A program made the translations under genes and the position numbers. From contig CAYODY010000005.1 of assembly GCA_964402965.1 (NCBI GenBank), forward strand, positions 1-60,584: 60,584 nt of DNA, written 5' to 3'. Within the stretch, counting starts at the first letter, position 1; every line of letters begins with the position of its first letter. The stretch is from an uncultured Candidatus Saccharibacteria bacterium. GTDB taxonomy: Bacteria; Patescibacteriota; Doudnabacteria; UBA920. This document shows positions 21,620-43,259 of this stretch, one piece after another. The notes beneath the pieces are model-generated. The model had not been told where the DNA came from. It did no database searches and saw only the letters and a program-made list of their open reading frames with translations.

Positions 21620-21714
21620 AAATTATCTTTTTGTTTCAAAACTAACCTTGTTAAGGGTATTATAACATAATTTAGAAACTTTATACAATTTAGCTTGTCT
21701 AGTATACTTTGATT

Positions 21715-23496
21715 ATGAAAAAACGATTTTTATCCCCTGGAGAAAAAATAGAAAATTTCTCAACGTGGGCATTATTAAAAAGTATTAACCAGAAAATTAA
21801 ACCATACCGAGGAAAGTTTCTCTTGGGAAGTTTTTTGCGACTGACTGCTGATATTTCGAATCTATATCCTACTTATGCCTTAGCTTCCCTAATTACAATT
21901 CTATCCAAAGGCAACGTTGCCCAAAGTGCAAATAAAATTTGGACAATTGCAATATTGTGGATAATATCAGCTATATACAGGGTGATATGTAAATATTTTT
22001 CGAAGAAAATACTTTTCAGGATTTCTCAAAAAACTGCTTTAGATGTTGAACAAGAATCTATTAGCCACATGTTCAATTTAGACATGGCGTGGCATGAAAA
22101 AGAAAACACAGGAAACAAACTTCAAAGAATTAAAAATGCTTCGAATGGTTACAGAATGTTGATGAACATTTGGATCAATAATTTGATTGAAATCATTATT
22201 AACTTTATTGGAGGTCTCGTAATACTATTTAACTTTAACAAACCTATTGCGCTTGCTACTGGAATTTTTCTAATTTGTTACCTAACTCTTTCAAAAATTA
22301 TTCGAGAGAAAGCAGCGATCGCTTACAATGAAGTTAATATTCAGGGAGAAGAACTCACTGGCCTTCAATACGAAGCCGTTGCCAACATTCGTTCAATAAA
22401 AATAATGTCCATGGTGAAAACCATGAAGGACCTCCTTAATTTACGAACAAATTCAGTATTCGAAGCAATTAAAAAGAACGTCTTTTGGACTCAATTCAGA
22501 AGTTTGGTTGAGCAAGCGCTTGCATTAATTTTTAAATTTGGAATTTTAATTTTTGTAGTATATGGAATTATTAAAGGAAGATACGAGGCTGGCCTGTTAA
22601 TTCTATTCAATAACTACTTTAATAATGTATGGATGTCTGTTGATGAACTTTCCAATGTCAGTCAGGATATTTTGGTTTCAAGGTACTCAATCTCCCGTCT
22701 AAATAAAATCATGGATGAGAAAGTCACAATCGATGACGAAAAAGGCAAAAGACCATTCCCTACTGACTGGAAAACGATCCAATTAAAAAACGTAAACTTC
22801 TCTTACGAGAATAACTTAGTTTTGAAAAATATATCTTTTGTTATAAACAGAGGTGAAAAAATTGGTATCATCGGGCTCTCTGGAGCTGGTAAATCCACAA
22901 TATTTAAACTTCTTCTAAAAGAATATGAGAACTTTGATGGTGAGATTTTAATAGATAATGTGCCGATCCGAGAGATCAGCAAAAAGAAGTATTTTGAATC
23001 AACAGCAGCAGTACTTCAAGAAACTGAAGTGTTCAACTTCTCATTAAGAGAAAATATCTTTTTTGCTGGACCTGGAACTAAGAACAAAGAAAGCGAACTT
23101 CAGAAAGCACTAGAAATAGCTCACGTAACAGACTTTTTACCAAAACTTCAAAATGGCGTAGATACTGAGATTGGTGAAAAAGGAGTACGACTTTCTGGAG
23201 GAGAAAAACAAAGACTTGGCATTGCCAGAGCTGTGTTTAAAAATCCGCAACTTCTTTTACTAGACGAGGCAACCTCACATTTAGACTTAGAATCTGAAGA
23301 AAAGATTCAAGACTCACTGCACAAATTCTTTAAGAATGTCACAGCTGTTGTTATCGCCCACCGTCTTACAACAATTAAAGAAATGGATAAAATTATTGTT
23401 ATAGAAAATGGCGAAGTAATAGAATCTGGGAATTTTGCCGAACTAACCGCCAAGCGTGGACGATTCTTCGAGCTATGGGAAAAACAGAGATTGTAA
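21715..23496 (+). CDS. ABC exporter, fused permease and ATPase
   Basis: Walker A GLSGAGKST, signature LSGGEKQR, Walker B LLLLDEATS. ATG at 21715 is preferred because TATACT at 21703-21708 lies 6 nt upstream. Confidence 0.88.
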   Translation: MKKRFLSPGEKIENFSTWALLKSINQKIKPYRGKFLLGSFLRLTADISNLYPTYALASLITILSKGNVAQSANKIWTIAILWIISAIYRVICKYFSKKILFRISQKTALDVEQESISHMFNLDMAWHEKENTGNKLQRIKNASNGYRMLMNIWINNLIEIIINFIGGLVILFNFNKPIALATGIFLICYLTLSKIIREKAAIAYNEVNIQGEELTGLQYEAVANIRSIKIMSMVKTMKDLLNLRTNSVFEAIKKNVFWTQFRSLVEQALALIFKFGILIFVVYGIIKGRYEAGLLILFNNYFNNVWMSVDELSNVSQDILVSRYSISRLNKIMDEKVTIDDEKGKRPFPTDWKTIQLKNVNFSYENNLVLKNISFVINRGEKIGIIGLSGAGKSTIFKLLLKEYENFDGEILIDNVPIREISKKKYFESTAAVLQETEVFNFSLRENIFFAGPGTKNKESELQKALEIAHVTDFLPKLQNGVDTEIGEKGVRLSGGEKQRLGIARAVFKNPQLLLLDEATSHLDLESEEKIQDSLHKFFKNVTAVVIAHRLTTIKEMDKIIVIENGEVIESGNFAELTAKRGRFFELWEKQRL

Positions 23497-23551
23497 GCTC
23501 AAGATCGTCAGTTCAAAAATCCATTTTCCAAAGAAATAAAAAAGCATTCCC

Positions 23552-23611
23552 TAACGAGACTATTGGAGCTCAGCATCACGCGAAGCGTGAGCGTAGCGAC
23601 CTAGTCGAGGT
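23552..23611 (-). repeat. Hairpin-nested module, copy 1 (reverse orientation, different apical hairpin)
   Basis: The reverse complement reads acctcgactaggtcgctacg-ctcacgcttcgcgtgatg-ctgagctccaatagtctcgtta. It is enclosed by outer stem 23539-23551 / 23612-23624. Confidence 0.85.
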
Positions 23612-23635
23612 GGGAATGCTTTTTATATTTCTTAT

Positions 23636-24877: not shown

Positions 24878-25011
24878 CAGTTTATATTTCTATATTAAAG
24901 AAAAAAACGCAAAATAACAACTCAAACGGTCTAAAACTCTTTCAATTGTTGTTTTGCGTTTTATTTTTATTACTCCAGCACTATTTTAGTGCTAATTGGA
25001 CCAAAGTGCCT

Positions 25012-27023: not shown

Positions 27024-27132
27024 AAAATTTCACCTCACTTTAAAATGTGGCCTCAAGGACCTTAATCTCAGTAATTATACGTCATTTCCCCTCGGAGGTC
27101 AAATTGACGATCAACCCTCAAAACTAATTACC

Positions 27133-27191
27133 ACCTCGACTAGGTCGCTACGATTTGCTTTCAGCAAATCTGGGCTCCAATAGTCTCGTTA
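27133..27191 (+). repeat. Hairpin-nested module, copy 2
   Basis: acctcgactaggtcgctacg-atttgctttcagcaaat-ctgggctccaatagtctcgtta. It is enclosed by outer stem 27115-27132 / 27192-27208. Confidence 0.85.
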
Positions 27192-27212
27192 GGTAATTAG
27201 TTTTTGGGTTAT

Positions 27213-27542
27213 TTATTCAATTAGAAAATCCAGCTGTTCTTTAGGAATCCCTAATGATAAACCATAGTTAACAGCAGGGATCCATGAATCCTTATTATCA
27301 TATTCAAATTTGAAAATCTTATTCTTATAGACTGCTATAATACTATTTCCATTCCAAAAATGCATATACCAACTAACACCATTGATTTCTTGAGAGAGCT
27401 TATTAATATCTTCTTCTGATATTTCGACAGTATATAAATGCCAACCCAAATTTTCAGTTTTTCTAGAACTGATTATTTTGAAATCAGTTAATATTTTTGG
27501 GTTTACTAAACTCTCTAAGATAATAGTGCCAGTATATTCCAT
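27213..27542 (-). CDS. Hypothetical protein
   Basis: Start moved to MEYTGT. TGtTATAAT at 27549-27557 lies 6 nt upstream. The longer ORF would run into the 27554-27573 hairpin arm. Confidence 0.5.
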   Translation of the reverse strand: MEYTGTIILESLVNPKILTDFKIISSRKTENLGWHLYTVEISEEDINKLSQEINGVSWYMHFWNGNSIIAVYKNKIFKFEYDNKDSWIPAVNYGLSLGIPKEQLDFLIE

Positions 27543-27553
27543 ATTTCTATTAT

Positions 27554-27647
27554 AACAAATAACCGCCATCTCTGAACGCATACGAGGTCATATATCCAAG
27601 AAAATCTATATGCCCGAGTCTAAGTGAAGAGATGGCGGTTATTTGTT
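27554..27647. other. Perfect 20-bp stem enclosing a 54-nt loop
   Basis: aacaaataaccgccatctct at 27554-27573 pairs perfectly with agagatggcggttatttgtt at 27628-27647. A T-run follows. Confidence 0.8.
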
Positions 27648-27651
27648 TTTA

Positions 27652-27993
27652 TTATTCTTCCAATTGCTTCCCACCAAGTAAATGCATATGTAAGTGCTGA
27701 ATTACTTGTCCGCCTTCTTTTCCGCTATTTATGACGATCTTAAATCCGGATTCAGAAATACCAGTTTTTAGGGCGTAATTTTTTGCAGCGAGAATAAGTT
27801 CACCAATTAAGTTAGTGTCTTCATCTGTTAATTCATTTACAGATTTAATATGGCGCTTAGGCATTACCTGAACATGCACGGGTGCTTTTGGCATAATATC
27901 TCGAAGAACCATCACATCTTCATTTTCAAAAAGGATATCGCCTGCCACTGTCTTGTTACCAATATTACAAAAAATACAATTTGGATCTGTCAT
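27652..27993 (-). CDS. HIT-family nucleotide hydrolase (HinT-like)
   Basis: Histidine triad HLHMHLLGG; CIFCNI near the N-terminus. Confidence 0.88.
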   Translation of the reverse strand: MTDPNCIFCNIGNKTVAGDILFENEDVMVLRDIMPKAPVHVQVMPKRHIKSVNELTDEDTNLIGELILAAKNYALKTGISESGFKIVINSGKEGGQVIQHLHMHLLGGKQLEE

Positions 27994-32904: not shown

Positions 32905-32930
32905 ATAGAAATAAAATTAAAGGTGTTGTC

Positions 32931-32989
32931 ACCTCGATCAGGTCGCTACTATTTGCTTTCAGCAAATCTGGGCTCCAATGATCTCGTTA
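32931..32989 (+). repeat. Hairpin-nested module, copy 3
   Basis: acctcgatcaggtcgctact-atttgctttcagcaaat-ctgggctccaatgatctcgtta. It is enclosed by outer stem 32919-32930 / 32990-33001 between convergent genes. Confidence 0.85.
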
Positions 32990-33030
32990 GACAACACCTT
33001 TTTATTTTACAAATTTTACTCCAAAAGAAT

Positions 33031-35757: not shown

Positions 35758-36480
35758 ATGAATACAAACACATCCTATTTTGATTCCCTGGAATCAAAAA
35801 TATATTTCCTTCGTGGTCGGAGGGTAATGTTAGATAGCGACCTAGCTTTTTTGTATGGCGTGCCAACAAAAAGATTAAATGAGCAAGTCAGAAGAAACAC
35901 ACAGCGATTCCCCGAAGATTTTATGTTTCAACTCACACAAGAGGAGTTCGACCATATACGGTCGCAATTTGTTTCCGCATATGTGGATAACAATTCTTTA
36001 AGGTCACAAATTGTGACCTTAAACAGTGGACAACTATCTTCAAGGTCGCAAATTGCGACCTTGAACGATCAAGATGGCTTAAATGAGCCAAACTTGAAGT
36101 CACAATCTGTGACCTCAAGTGGGGATAACCTACCTTCAAGGTCACAAATTGTGACCTTGAACAAAAGCATGAGGTCGCAAATTGAGACCACATCAAAACG
36201 TGGACAAAATATTAAGTACCTTCCCTTCGCATTTACCGAGCAAGGGGTGGCAATGCTATCTTCTGTTTTAAAAAGCGAGCAAGCAATTCTAGTAAATATT
36301 CATATTATGCGGACATTCACAAAAACGCGTGGGATGTTGGCACAAAACCAACAACTCCGCGAACTCATAGAGAATCTGGAAATTAAATACGACGCCAATT
36401 TTAAAACCCTATTAGACGTCATTGAACTAATATTAACCCCGCAAGACATTGTAGAGAAAGGAAAAAATGAACGAATATAA
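35758..36480 (+). CDS. ORF6N/KilA-N-like DNA-binding protein with an internal RSQ(I/F)(V/A)T repeat expansion
   Basis: IYFLRGRRVMLDSDLAFLYGV.TKRLNEQV.RN..RFP.DFMFQL and YLPFAFTEQGVAMLSSVLKS. Confidence 0.75.
   Translation: MNTNTSYFDSLESKIYFLRGRRVMLDSDLAFLYGVPTKRLNEQVRRNTQRFPEDFMFQLTQEEFDHIRSQFVSAYVDNNSLRSQIVTLNSGQLSSRSQIATLNDQDGLNEPNLKSQSVTSSGDNLPSRSQIVTLNKSMRSQIETTSKRGQNIKYLPFAFTEQGVAMLSSVLKSEQAILVNIHIMRTFTKTRGMLAQNQQLRELIENLEIKYDANFKTLLDVIELILTPQDIVEKGKNERI
36000..36159. repeat. Perfect 21-23 nt palindromes inside the CDS
   Basis: 36000-36020 aaggtcacaaattgtgacctt; 36041-36063 caaggtcgcaaattgcgaccttg; 36137-36159 caaggtcacaaattgtgaccttg. Degenerate copies lie near 35959, 36099 and 36171. 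Confidence 0.9.
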
Positions 36481-41543: not shown

Positions 41544-43259
41544 CTAAAATTGTTGAGTATTTACTGGTTCCTCACTGCTAAGGGAACCATGCTCAACTTT
41601 GGGTCTGTAGCTCAGTTGGTAGAGCAGTGGCCTTTTAAGCCATTTGTCGCGGGTTCGAATCCCGCCGGACCCACCAAATGAGTCTTGCTCGAATATAGGA
41701 TTGCCTTTAGTTTTATTACGGCATAAGTAATCCAACGGTTCTTGCAAGACAGCACGGACAATTTGTCCATCACGCATATACAATTCTTTGAATAACGTTC
41801 GAGCCAAGAGAGCCTTCATTTGAGGCTCTTTTGCGTTTTGGTAGGCATACGCGCAACTAACCGTTAGTGATAGTGCAATCTCAACAGTACGGACGACTCC
41901 CGCAATTTTACTTTCAACTTTACCGAGTTCATCAGTTAACTTTGTATCTTCCATTCCTAATTCAGCCATAACCGTATGGTACAAATCCATATCTCCAGAG
42001 GTGTTATTTTCTTTATCAACTAACTGAAGAACTAAGTTTTTCTTCTGCCGTTTAATGTTCGCTACTTTCCCTAGTATATCCTTACGGGCTTTTTCATAGA
42101 TAACATGTTCATCAGAAAACAATCCCCTGACTTTTGCTTGAAGCTTTTCAGTAGTAGATACAGGCAGGTTGATAGTTTGAAGAAGTTTCTCAAACTGATT
42201 TTCATACTCAGACTCATGATGGTACTTCTGACTACAAGGTACTTTCCTTTTCTTGATAGCCTTTAGACAACGAAGATACCGATAGATGTTCTTTTTACGA
42301 GTTACCTGCTCATCACTAGTCATTTTACTACTGCACTCATCGCAGTATGAGATGCCTTTAAGGATAGAAAACAAACGCCACTTCCGACTTGAACTACTAG
42401 AGCGTGATGAGCATACCGCTTGGGCTTTATCGAATAACGCACGATCTAAAAATAGTTCGTGGTTACCATTTTCATTTACAACTCCGTCCCATATAATATG
42501 CCCAATATAGAATTTGTCTTGGAGAATGCGAGCCAAATAGCTAGCTTGCAAAACACTGCGAGTCTGACCTTTAAATAAACGAAGTGGAAACCCTTCATCA
42601 ATAAGCTGTTCAGCTAAATCACGAGTTGACCAGTTGCCAGTAGCATACAGTTCATATGCCCTAGTGACCCATTTAGCCTCTGTCCAGTCTACTTCTATCC
42701 ACGCCTTAACTTTACCAGTAGACGCTTTCTCCTGAACATTTTTATATCCATAAGGGGCTGTCCTTGGCCAACCCCCAGCTTTCGCTTTCTGTATTAGATT
42801 GTTCTTAACTCGGCGACCATGTTGAGCAGAATAGAATTCTGCTAGTGAAGATAGGATTCCTTCCAACATTTGACCCTCAGGGCTGTCATCAATACCTTCT
42901 GTGGCGGAAATTAATTTAACATTGTGTTTACGCAATGCGACTTTAATAAGTGAGAGGTCATCACGATTGCGAGCTAGGCGGCTTAGGTCGTAAACAGTGA
43001 TTGCCTGAACAGACTTATCTTTTTCACAACGATTTAGCATATCCAGCAGTGCTGCACGATCCATTGTGCGAGCACTCAGTCCTGCATCTGTGTAAATGTC
43101 TGTCTCAAGGTTAAATGTGTAGCCATTTTGCTCTGCGTATTCTGTACATTTAGCTTGCTGTGTTGGGAGAGCAATGCCTTTTTCGGCTTGCTGGTCGGTT
43201 GATACCCGTAGATAAATGAGGGTAATACCTTTTGATTGATTTATTGATTGTTCGTTCAT
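41544..43259 (-). CDS. Large serine recombinase; the last ~44 codons are read-through across the tRNA-Lys antisense
   Basis: Resolvase N-domain ITLIYLRVSTDQQ...YDLSRLARN, a recombinase domain, and zinc ribbon CDEC...YLRC. The C-terminal FGGSGGIRTRDKWLKRPLLYQLSYRP is the reverse complement of the tRNA. Confidence 0.85.
   Translation of the reverse strand: MNEQSINQSKGITLIYLRVSTDQQAEKGIALPTQQAKCTEYAEQNGYTFNLETDIYTDAGLSARTMDRAALLDMLNRCEKDKSVQAITVYDLSRLARNRDDLSLIKVALRKHNVKLISATEGIDDSPEGQMLEGILSSLAEFYSAQHGRRVKNNLIQKAKAGGWPRTAPYGYKNVQEKASTGKVKAWIEVDWTEAKWVTRAYELYATGNWSTRDLAEQLIDEGFPLRLFKGQTRSVLQASYLARILQDKFYIGHIIWDGVVNENGNHELFLDRALFDKAQAVCSSRSSSSSRKWRLFSILKGISYCDECSSKMTSDEQVTRKKNIYRYLRCLKAIKKRKVPCSQKYHHESEYENQFEKLLQTINLPVSTTEKLQAKVRGLFSDEHVIYEKARKDILGKVANIKRQKKNLVLQLVDKENNTSGDMDLYHTVMAELGMEDTKLTDELGKVESKIAGVVRTVEIALSLTVSCAYAYQNAKEPQMKALLARTLFKELYMRDGQIVRAVLQEPLDYLCRNKTKGNPIFEQDSFGGSGGIRTRDKWLKRPLLYQLSYRPKVEHGSLSSEEPVNTQQF
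41601..41676 (+). tRNA. tRNA-Lys(UUU), CCA encoded
   Basis: Canonical cloverleaf. Acceptor gggtctg/cggaccc, D arm gctc-agttggta-gagc, anticodon arm gtggc-cttttaa-gccat, T arm gcggg-ttcgaat-cccgc. Confidence 0.93.

Follow-up and report, generated by a model that had tools for sequence, protein, structure and literature searches.

An intergenic or terminator-associated palindrome with nested and mosaic evolution in Candidatus Saccharibacteria

Background

REP, BIME and REPIN sequences are repetitive extragenic palindromes that move with the help of RAYT transposases and can double as terminators or stabilise mRNA. MITE-type repeats such as the Neisseria Correia, ERIC and RUP/BOX elements are intergenic and roughly 100 nt long; their transcripts adopt long hairpins at which transcription can stop or RNase III can cut. 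Other long hairpins, retroregulatory or processed by RNase III and exemplified by the lambda sib and T7 R1.1-type sites, stand at gene ends, where small conserved loops interrupt an irregular helix of about 30 bp. CPR bacteria such as Saccharibacteria have tiny genomes and few known regulators, and to our knowledge almost no non-coding elements have been described in them.

Here we describe a conserved intergenic or terminator-associated palindrome in this CPR lineage, with unusual nested and mosaic evolution. Three copies lie in a 60,584-nt stretch of DNA from an uncultured Candidatus Saccharibacteria bacterium (the window). They are paralogous members of a nested-hairpin family: small, low in copy number, restricted to a clade of Candidatus Saccharibacteria, and made up of imperfect palindromes of about 85–105 nt.

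Like the REP, BIME and REPIN sequences, the members are extragenic imperfect palindromes, often at gene 3′ ends or between convergent genes and in either orientation, in which two conserved inverted halves and a variable spacer form one long hairpin. REPs, however, number tens to hundreds of copies, and the present family a handful. Its core is kept across genomes only 70–80% identical in a housekeeping protein; the palindrome is nested in a further, variable outer stem; and the CTAC/GTAG motif lies on the opposite hairpin side from the canonical REP arrangement. The likeness to Correia, ERIC and RUP/BOX repeats extends to length, intergenic position and folding, but conserved terminal inverted repeats and target-site duplications are absent here, copies are few, and the most conserved part is the interior rather than the ends.

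The lambda sib and T7 R1.1-type sites share the long irregular hairpin at gene ends with its small conserved loops, several copies per genome, variable stems, and overlap with terminators. This is a likeness of shape only: there is no sequence similarity, and three members of the present family are antisense. Integron attC sites also conserve structure over sequence, and have the same succession of outer box, asymmetric spacer, inner box with extrahelical bases, and variable terminal stem-loop. The 3′ end of the module (GTTAGGT or GTTAGAC) fits the GTTRRRY consensus in three of the four closest copies. GTTA is unpaired, however, for want of the complementary R″ box (RYYYAAC), and the GTT is lost in relatives. 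R″/R′ box pairs, an array in one orientation and a nearby intI integrase gene were all lacking; there is no cassette array, orientations are mixed, and the neighbours are housekeeping genes. Finally, chloroplast non-coding DNA undergoes small hairpin-loop inversions: related genomes keep one stem, and the segment enclosed by its short inverted repeats turns round recurrently, as in one pair of members described below (L214 and L130). Those inversions are a mutational phenomenon and not an element family, and would account for orientation changes only.

Three nested hairpins in the window

The preliminary description of the window reported a module of 59–60 nt at three loci, and direct reading confirms its sequences and coordinates (Table 1). 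Two imperfectly complementary halves, of 19–20 nt and 22 nt, enclose a variable apical stem; all copies are intergenic. The 5′ half has three matches in the window against 0.01 expected, and none of 100 shuffles reaches three; no further occurrence was found in the window with up to three mismatches allowed. The 3′ half has three matches against 0.00 expected. A filters-off covariance-model search of the whole 60.6-kb window returned the three copies only, all within 10 kb. The module was also considered as coding sequence and rejected: the apical stem of the third copy (w3) is 1 nt longer, which shifts the frame.

Each copy forms a long nested hairpin with the outer stems first described; relative to dinucleotide shuffles, z ranges from −6.0 to −7.7. 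In the closest members a small asymmetric loop (5′-AC / 3′-UUA) separates the outer stem from helix P2. Copy w2 differs from w1 and w3 by a double compensatory change: TC replaces CT in the 5′ arm, GA replaces AG in the 3′ arm, and P2 stays paired (GACUA/UAGUC to GAUCA/UGAUC). The outer stems, thought to be unrelated between loci, do mostly differ, but their inner 5 bp (TTnnC/GnnAA) are present in all copies. Nor are they wholly locus-specific, since stems of the same type recur in other genomes. The initial survey, which gave loops of 4–25 nt for the other terminators in the window, was incomplete: it overlooked a fourth long hairpin, here called type B (the module family being type A).

Table 1. 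Coordinates of the hairpins and of neighbouring features in the window
Feature	Position	Strand	Remarks
w1, whole nested hairpin	27115..27208	+	MFE −38.6 kcal/mol, z −7.2; R1 103 bits
w1, outer stem / module	27115-27132/27192-27208 / 27133-27191	+	direct reading, folding
w1, invariant centre	27147..27175	+	GCTACG 27147-27152, apical stem-loop, CTGGGC 27170-27175
w2, nested hairpin	32919..33001	+	module 32931-32989; R1 99.9 bits; P2 compensatory change
w3, nested hairpin	23540..23623	-	module 23552-23611; R1 101 bits
5′ half, ACCTCGAYYAGGTCGCTAC	27133-27151; 32931-32949; 23593-23611	+; +; -	
3′ half, CTGRGCTCCAATRRTCTCGTTA	27170-27191; 32968-32989; 23552-23573	+; +; -	
Type B nested hairpin	27549..27652	-	core TTCACTTAGACTCGGGC ... 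GACCTCGTATGCGTTCAGAG; inverted repeat, R1 17.2 bits (weak)
rpsU promoter	27102-27074	-	near-consensus, TTGACC-17-TATAAT
109/122-aa ORF	27213-27581	-	no Pfam match
595-aa ABC gene	21709-23496		convergent with ftsZ
ftsA–ftsZ hairpin	24898-24968		AAACGCAAAATAACAACTCAAA...TTTCAATTGTTGTTTTGCGTTT
der/engA stop	32904	+	
Second ABC transporter gene, stop	33031	-	convergent with der
ORF6N-domain gene	35758-36480		palindromes at 35948-36189
Large serine recombinase gene	41544-43259	-	Resolvase + Recombinase + Zn_ribbon_recom
tRNA	41601-41673	+	

Neighbouring genes were named from Pfam matches. Copy w3 has the same sense as ftsZ and begins 12 nt past the stop of that gene; an ABC transporter gene converges on it from the other side. 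Copy w2, in der sense, is bounded by the stops of der/engA and of a second ABC transporter gene. Both loci, as originally stated, stand between convergent genes and are flanked by A- and T-runs. Copy w1 lies between the stop of the 109/122-aa ORF and the rpsU promoter, which separates its hairpin from rpsU, and the module is antisense to both flanking genes. A promoter for w1 in module sense was sought and none found; only the opposite-strand rpsU promoter is present. Because GC skew is negative throughout the window, the copies also face different ways with respect to replication.

The exact FtsZ of the window occurs on seven short same-species contigs from other samples, all of which carry copies. 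In two samples of the same species (L125, L127) the 595-aa ABC gene is absent and the hairpin is kept; this gene is a presence/absence polymorphism within the species. The 109/122-aa ORF, for its part, is flanked by a type B and a type A hairpin. No ORF of this size was called at that position in the fetched relatives, some of which have other genes there, for example a second HIT gene or a NUDIX gene. The ORF may be a lineage-specific insertion bracketed by two hairpins.

Relatives and their distribution

Two sets of related loci were searched: syntenic loci of about 20 kb from nine related genomes, retrieved through HisRS homologues (L129, L130, L131 and L213–L218), and 80 ftsZ loci from metagenomes. 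The nearest homologues of the window HisRS are 72–76% identical. Covariance models R1 (from four sequences) and R2 (iterated, from nine) together find 12 type A members in nine genomes; the related loci, about 900 kb in all, yield no other match. Copies beyond the window thus do exist.

Type A members follow ftsZ, always in ftsZ sense, in the window, L129, L131, L134, L216 and L137, and follow der in the window. At the HIT-3′/rpsU-5′ site they are sense in L214 and L215, and antisense in the window (w1) and L130. A last member, in L121, lies between the yraN terminator and nusA, antisense to yraN. Relative to transcription, nine of the 12 are sense and three antisense (w1, L130 HIT/rpsU and L121).

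Farther afield the family is scarce. A combined-pattern scan of one genome from each of 185,579 species gave a single match, L121, an uncultured Candidatus Saccharibacteria MAG; none of its 18 ORFs has a homologue in the window or in L129–L131. The combined pattern has no match in JGI metagenome contigs, and BLAST of the module against phage and plasmid collections found none. In IMG/VR, 120 stretches match a 14-base half-pattern; they were set aside as chance, none containing the second half.

The preliminary description did not recognise the module as a named repeat or RNA family, and it has no Rfam 15 match at gathering scores. The Rfam comparison included the twister, twister-sister, pistol, hatchet, hammerhead and hairpin ribozymes, riboswitches and Y RNA. 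At gathering thresholds the window yields three tRNAs only; with the cutoff relaxed to E<=10, the three regions match nothing beyond generic long hairpins (miRNA precursors, the plastid psbA 3′UTR), all scoring far below gathering. No description of this element was found in the literature on Saccharibacteria structured RNAs, palindromic repeats or terminator-loop insertions.

A covarying structure with an invariant centre

An alignment of 11 members bears out the early proposal of a structured modular element with compensatory changes. Standard pairs fill 90.5% of cells, against 65.5% in shuffles, and none of 500 shuffles reaches the observed value. Both sides have changed in 22 of the 28 pairs. 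When partner columns are slid by 1–3 positions, pairing drops to 34–50%.

Three parts of the hairpin vary: the outer stem, P2 and the apical stem. By contrast, GCUACG...CUGNGC is invariant in all 11 members. This centre comprises G-C, C-G and U-G pairs, followed by a 2×2 AC/UG internal loop; the U-G wobble, read in module sense, is present in eight of the 11. In type A, G-U pairs stand against A-C at 15 to 13, or 7 to 13 without that one conserved wobble, and the strand is undecidable from wobbles; in type B the count is 6 to 2. This is a genuine element with no description in the libraries searched; selection acts on it for pairing within the strand and for a particular centre.

The ftsZ site and a sister type

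The type B hairpin of the window directly follows the stop of a HIT-family gene, in gene sense. Its arms of 46 nt are 78% complementary, and its core, TTCRCTWAGACTYGSC ... GRCTCGYATKYGTTYA, is common to the hairpins 3′ of ftsZ in L213, L215, L133, L217 and L218. The nested architecture is shared, and double changes occur in 14 of 28 pairs (window with L213, L215 and L133). A type A member (L131) and a type B member (L133) both have CTYAGCTTCGC ... GCTCAG ... GTTC ... TAGA, so the two types look like two ends of one superfamily. The window type B is probably a diverged sister of the type A module.

The region 3′ of ftsZ was read in 12 close genomes, and in 11 of them it holds a hairpin of one type or the other, oriented as ftsZ: type A in the genomes named above, and type B in the five that share its core. 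L214 has no comparable hairpin in this region, the ftsZ 3′ end of L130 has a more divergent long hairpin, and more distant relatives have plain terminators after ftsZ. HisRS is only 70–80% identical among the family-carrying relatives. That the core is nevertheless kept at one position and in one orientation argues for function or selection. The ftsZ 3′ end is the ancestral, orthologously conserved site of the family, and w3 is its member in the window.

Layers, relocations and inversions

Identities of the outer stem, core and apical stem were scored separately for each pair of copies (Table 2). The layers show discordant similarity: the copies are mosaics. Within the window the outer arms are 45–64% identical and the cores 86–98%; the outer stems of w1 and w2 are near random, with three of nine positions identical outside the A-run. 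The core of w1, an antisense copy, is 98–100% identical to those of sense copies, and the cores of w1 and L121 are identical at unrelated loci.

Table 2. Identity by layer in selected pairs of copies
Pair	Outer stem	Core	Apical stem
w1 / w3 / L121, all pairs	64-68%	98%	35-46%
w1 and w2	45%	88%	100%
w1 and L129 ftsZ copy	43%	75%	94%
w3 (ftsZ site) and L214 (HIT site)	86%	53%	44%
L129 ftsZ copy and L215 HIT copy	91%	67%	71%

The preliminary description took the interior as the shared unit. Yet between the L129 ftsZ copy and the L215 HIT copy the whole hairpin is shared, outer stem included: 75 of 96 nt are identical, although the loci are non-orthologous and the genomes 77% identical in HisRS. 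L215 has type B after ftsZ and type A after HIT, and the window has the reverse. Depending on the genome, the HIT/rpsU site holds type A in sense, type A in antisense, type B, a remnant or a plain terminator, or is vacant. L214 and L130 share one outer stem there, within which the interior is flipped (alignment score 68 in module sense, 38 in gene sense). L217 holds a shortened remnant of the L215-type hairpin, and L218 (12166-12195) a short terminator with the same outer-stem type, AAAAGTATTG, without the module. None of the 12 members has target-site duplications; the 15-nt flanks are mutually inverted A/T runs and not direct repeats. Mosaic layers, together with cores that are near-identical in the window and diverged between species, recall copying or mobility more than cis-elements that stay in place.

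What kind of element?

Tentatively, we favour a general model in which the element is an elaborated, mostly bidirectional terminator or 3′-end RNA hairpin with a sequence-specific recognition core, spreading by rare duplication. The evolutionary unit would be the whole hairpin: A-run, outer stem, asymmetric loop (5′-AC / 3′-UUA), P2, the G-C, C-G and U-G pairs, the 2×2 AC/UG loop, variable apical stem, and T-run. It would act mainly as RNA, usually as a bidirectional intrinsic terminator or 3′-end hairpin. The invariant GCUACG/CUGNGC centre would be the sequence-specific recognition site for a putative trans-acting factor, most plausibly an endoribonuclease or RNA-binding protein that sets 3′-end stability, as at the lambda sib and T7 RNase III sites. 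New copies would be rare, arising when the hairpin or its inner layers are duplicated or relocated to other terminator positions. The segment between the inverted arms may also invert, giving flipped copies.

This terminator or RNA reading follows from the position after stop codons, the A/T runs, the fixed ftsZ-3′ orientation and the low copy number. A/T runs flank both sides in 10 of the 12 members, the shape of a bidirectional terminator. Copies w2 and w3 are predicted intrinsic terminators (six T in the first 8 nt, five A upstream), and w1 is a weaker candidate (four T). The seven same-species contigs also speak for it, keeping copies even in variants without the adjoining ABC gene. So do the covarying pairs, the invariant centre, the U-G wobble kept in module sense and the G-U excess in type B. 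Against it, the three antisense members oppose the only obvious transcription, and w1, for which no module-sense promoter was found, nevertheless has nearly the same core as the sense copies; the mosaic layers also count against it. Moreover, the module does not always sit on terminator hairpins, as had been supposed: the L121 and L137 members lie behind a separate plain terminator and have no A/T runs, and so are not terminators themselves. Once the conserved U-G is set aside, G-U pairs do not exceed A-C, and selection on the sense-strand RNA therefore lacks support from the wobbles.

The main rival is a REPIN- or MITE-like, non-autonomous DNA palindrome, copied from one intergenic site to another, whose folded single-stranded core would be recognised by a trans-acting enzyme, with terminator activity a by-product or exaptation. 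Antisense copies, non-terminator members, relocations and mosaicism are better explained in this way than by the terminator or RNA reading. Both orientations relative to transcription would be expected, as would the variable occupancy of the HIT/rpsU site, the near-identical whole hairpins at non-orthologous loci (L129 ftsZ and L215 HIT), the identical cores of w1 and L121, and a lack of G-U excess. The two imperfectly complementary halves around a variable spacer also recall REPINs. We nonetheless consider mobile DNA of this kind possible but on balance unlikely. Copy number is very low, with one exact-pattern match among all the species genomes scanned, 3 copies in 60.6 kb of window and 12 in about 900 kb of related loci. 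A multi-copy miniature transposon sits poorly with three copies in 60 kb, all within 10 kb, and with their absence from metagenome, viral, phage and plasmid collections. Target-site duplications are absent; the outer arms, in the place of terminal repeats, vary most among the copies of one genome; the core is conserved across far deeper divergence than in known REP families; and orientation 3′ of ftsZ is strictly conserved. The listed neighbourhoods of about 20 kb hold no Y1/HUH or other transposase, and neither they nor the scanned window ORFs include a RAYT (PF01797-type) gene. The window has just one recombinase, of the large serine type and adjacent to a tRNA.

A model along the lines of the preliminary description has a different unit: an interior of 59–70 nt, mobile or graftable, inserted at the apex of existing terminator hairpins; or, in a variant, hairpins replaced from the centre outward by paralogous ones, giving "Russian-doll" mosaics. 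The cores of w1 and w2 are 88% identical and their apical stems 100%, with outer stems near random; L214 and L130 carry the module in opposite orientations on one outer stem; the three layers are discordant; and L218 offers an "empty-like" terminator. Inner layers are indeed shared across differing outer stems, as a miniature element targeting hairpin loops would require, but insertion, while possible, is not needed. The apical stem of w1 and w2 recurs at 94% identity in the L129 ftsZ copy, so that constraint, and not recent transfer, may account for it. The copies have their A/T flanks and the innermost 5 bp of the outer stems in common, and between L129 and L215 it is the outer stem that is conserved while the interior differs. 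The "empty" hairpin in L218 is explained equally well by deletion, as is the L217 remnant. Flips between inverted repeats need no insertion: flipping of such a segment is a known mutational process. The ftsZ copy, moreover, was inherited at the same position and in the same orientation in at least six genomes (70–80% identical in HisRS). We know of no enzyme or mechanism for apex-targeted insertion, and judge this model improbable. It is equally doubtful that hairpin apices are sites of directed replacement, with a module of about 60 nt, or single layers, inserted or exchanged at the tips in either orientation. If true, apex replacement would give CPR bacteria either a new recombination process or a new kind of miniature mobile DNA that targets structure.

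A new small catalytic or ligand-binding RNA, either a self-cleaving ribozyme or a terminator-embedded aptamer, is very unlikely. The architecture is like that of small ribozymes and aptamers, with a variable closing helix, conserved internal loops and a variable apical helix, and the HMP-PP riboswitch (PMC6478431) gives a precedent for an aptamer embedded in a terminator. However, the ribozyme and riboswitch models of Rfam find nothing here, even with E<=10; the sites are mostly 3′ of functionally unrelated genes (ftsZ, der, HIT, yraN); three members are antisense to transcription; and the conserved loops are very small (2×2, 2/3 nt), with no pseudoknot evident.

Chance similarity, or a recent segmental duplication including the flanks, is excluded as the origin of the three loci: its sole point is their physical closeness, against three matches to each half where at most 0.01 were expected, flanking genes and outer stems that differ between loci (as the preliminary description had seen), and homologues in eight other genomes.

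Other features of the window and its relatives

A further hairpin lies between ftsA and ftsZ in the window, and at the same position in L129, L130, L213, L214 and L215. Within the ftsA–ftsZ unit it may serve as an attenuator, a terminator or a regulatory element. Very stable intergenic hairpins of 100–135 nt with unrelated interiors were noted in L137 (7653-7768, 12376-12564), L214 (7674-7775) and L215 (3268-3401); elaborate long hairpins may be a general feature of the clade.

About five near-perfect palindromes of 25–27 bp (TTCAAGGTCACAAATTGTGACCTTGAA) lie within the ORF6N-domain gene. They encode repeated RSQIVT-like peptide units and expand the domain, 158 residues of which match an 86-position profile. 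The array looks superficially like an operator or origin, and includes TGTGGATAA. A replication origin at 35.95–36.19 kb, suggested by the palindromes and TGTGGATAA-like boxes, was rejected: the array is part of the ORF6N-domain gene, GC skew keeps its sign, and the genes that come next are dprA, PGA_cap and topA. The serine recombinase gene abuts or overlaps the tRNA (Table 1), hinting at the boundary of an integrated mobile element or a prophage rightward of about 41.6 kb.

Perspective

The covarying structure 3′ of ftsZ offers a specific point at which cell division in obligate epibionts may be controlled post-transcriptionally. Its discordant nested layers, flips within an unchanged stem, and relocation make the family a tractable case for how terminator hairpins arise, copy and remodel. 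Some obligate-epibiont Saccharibacteria can now be cultured and genetically manipulated; if the invariant centre is a protein or nuclease recognition site, it would be a useful engineering handle for these bacteria.
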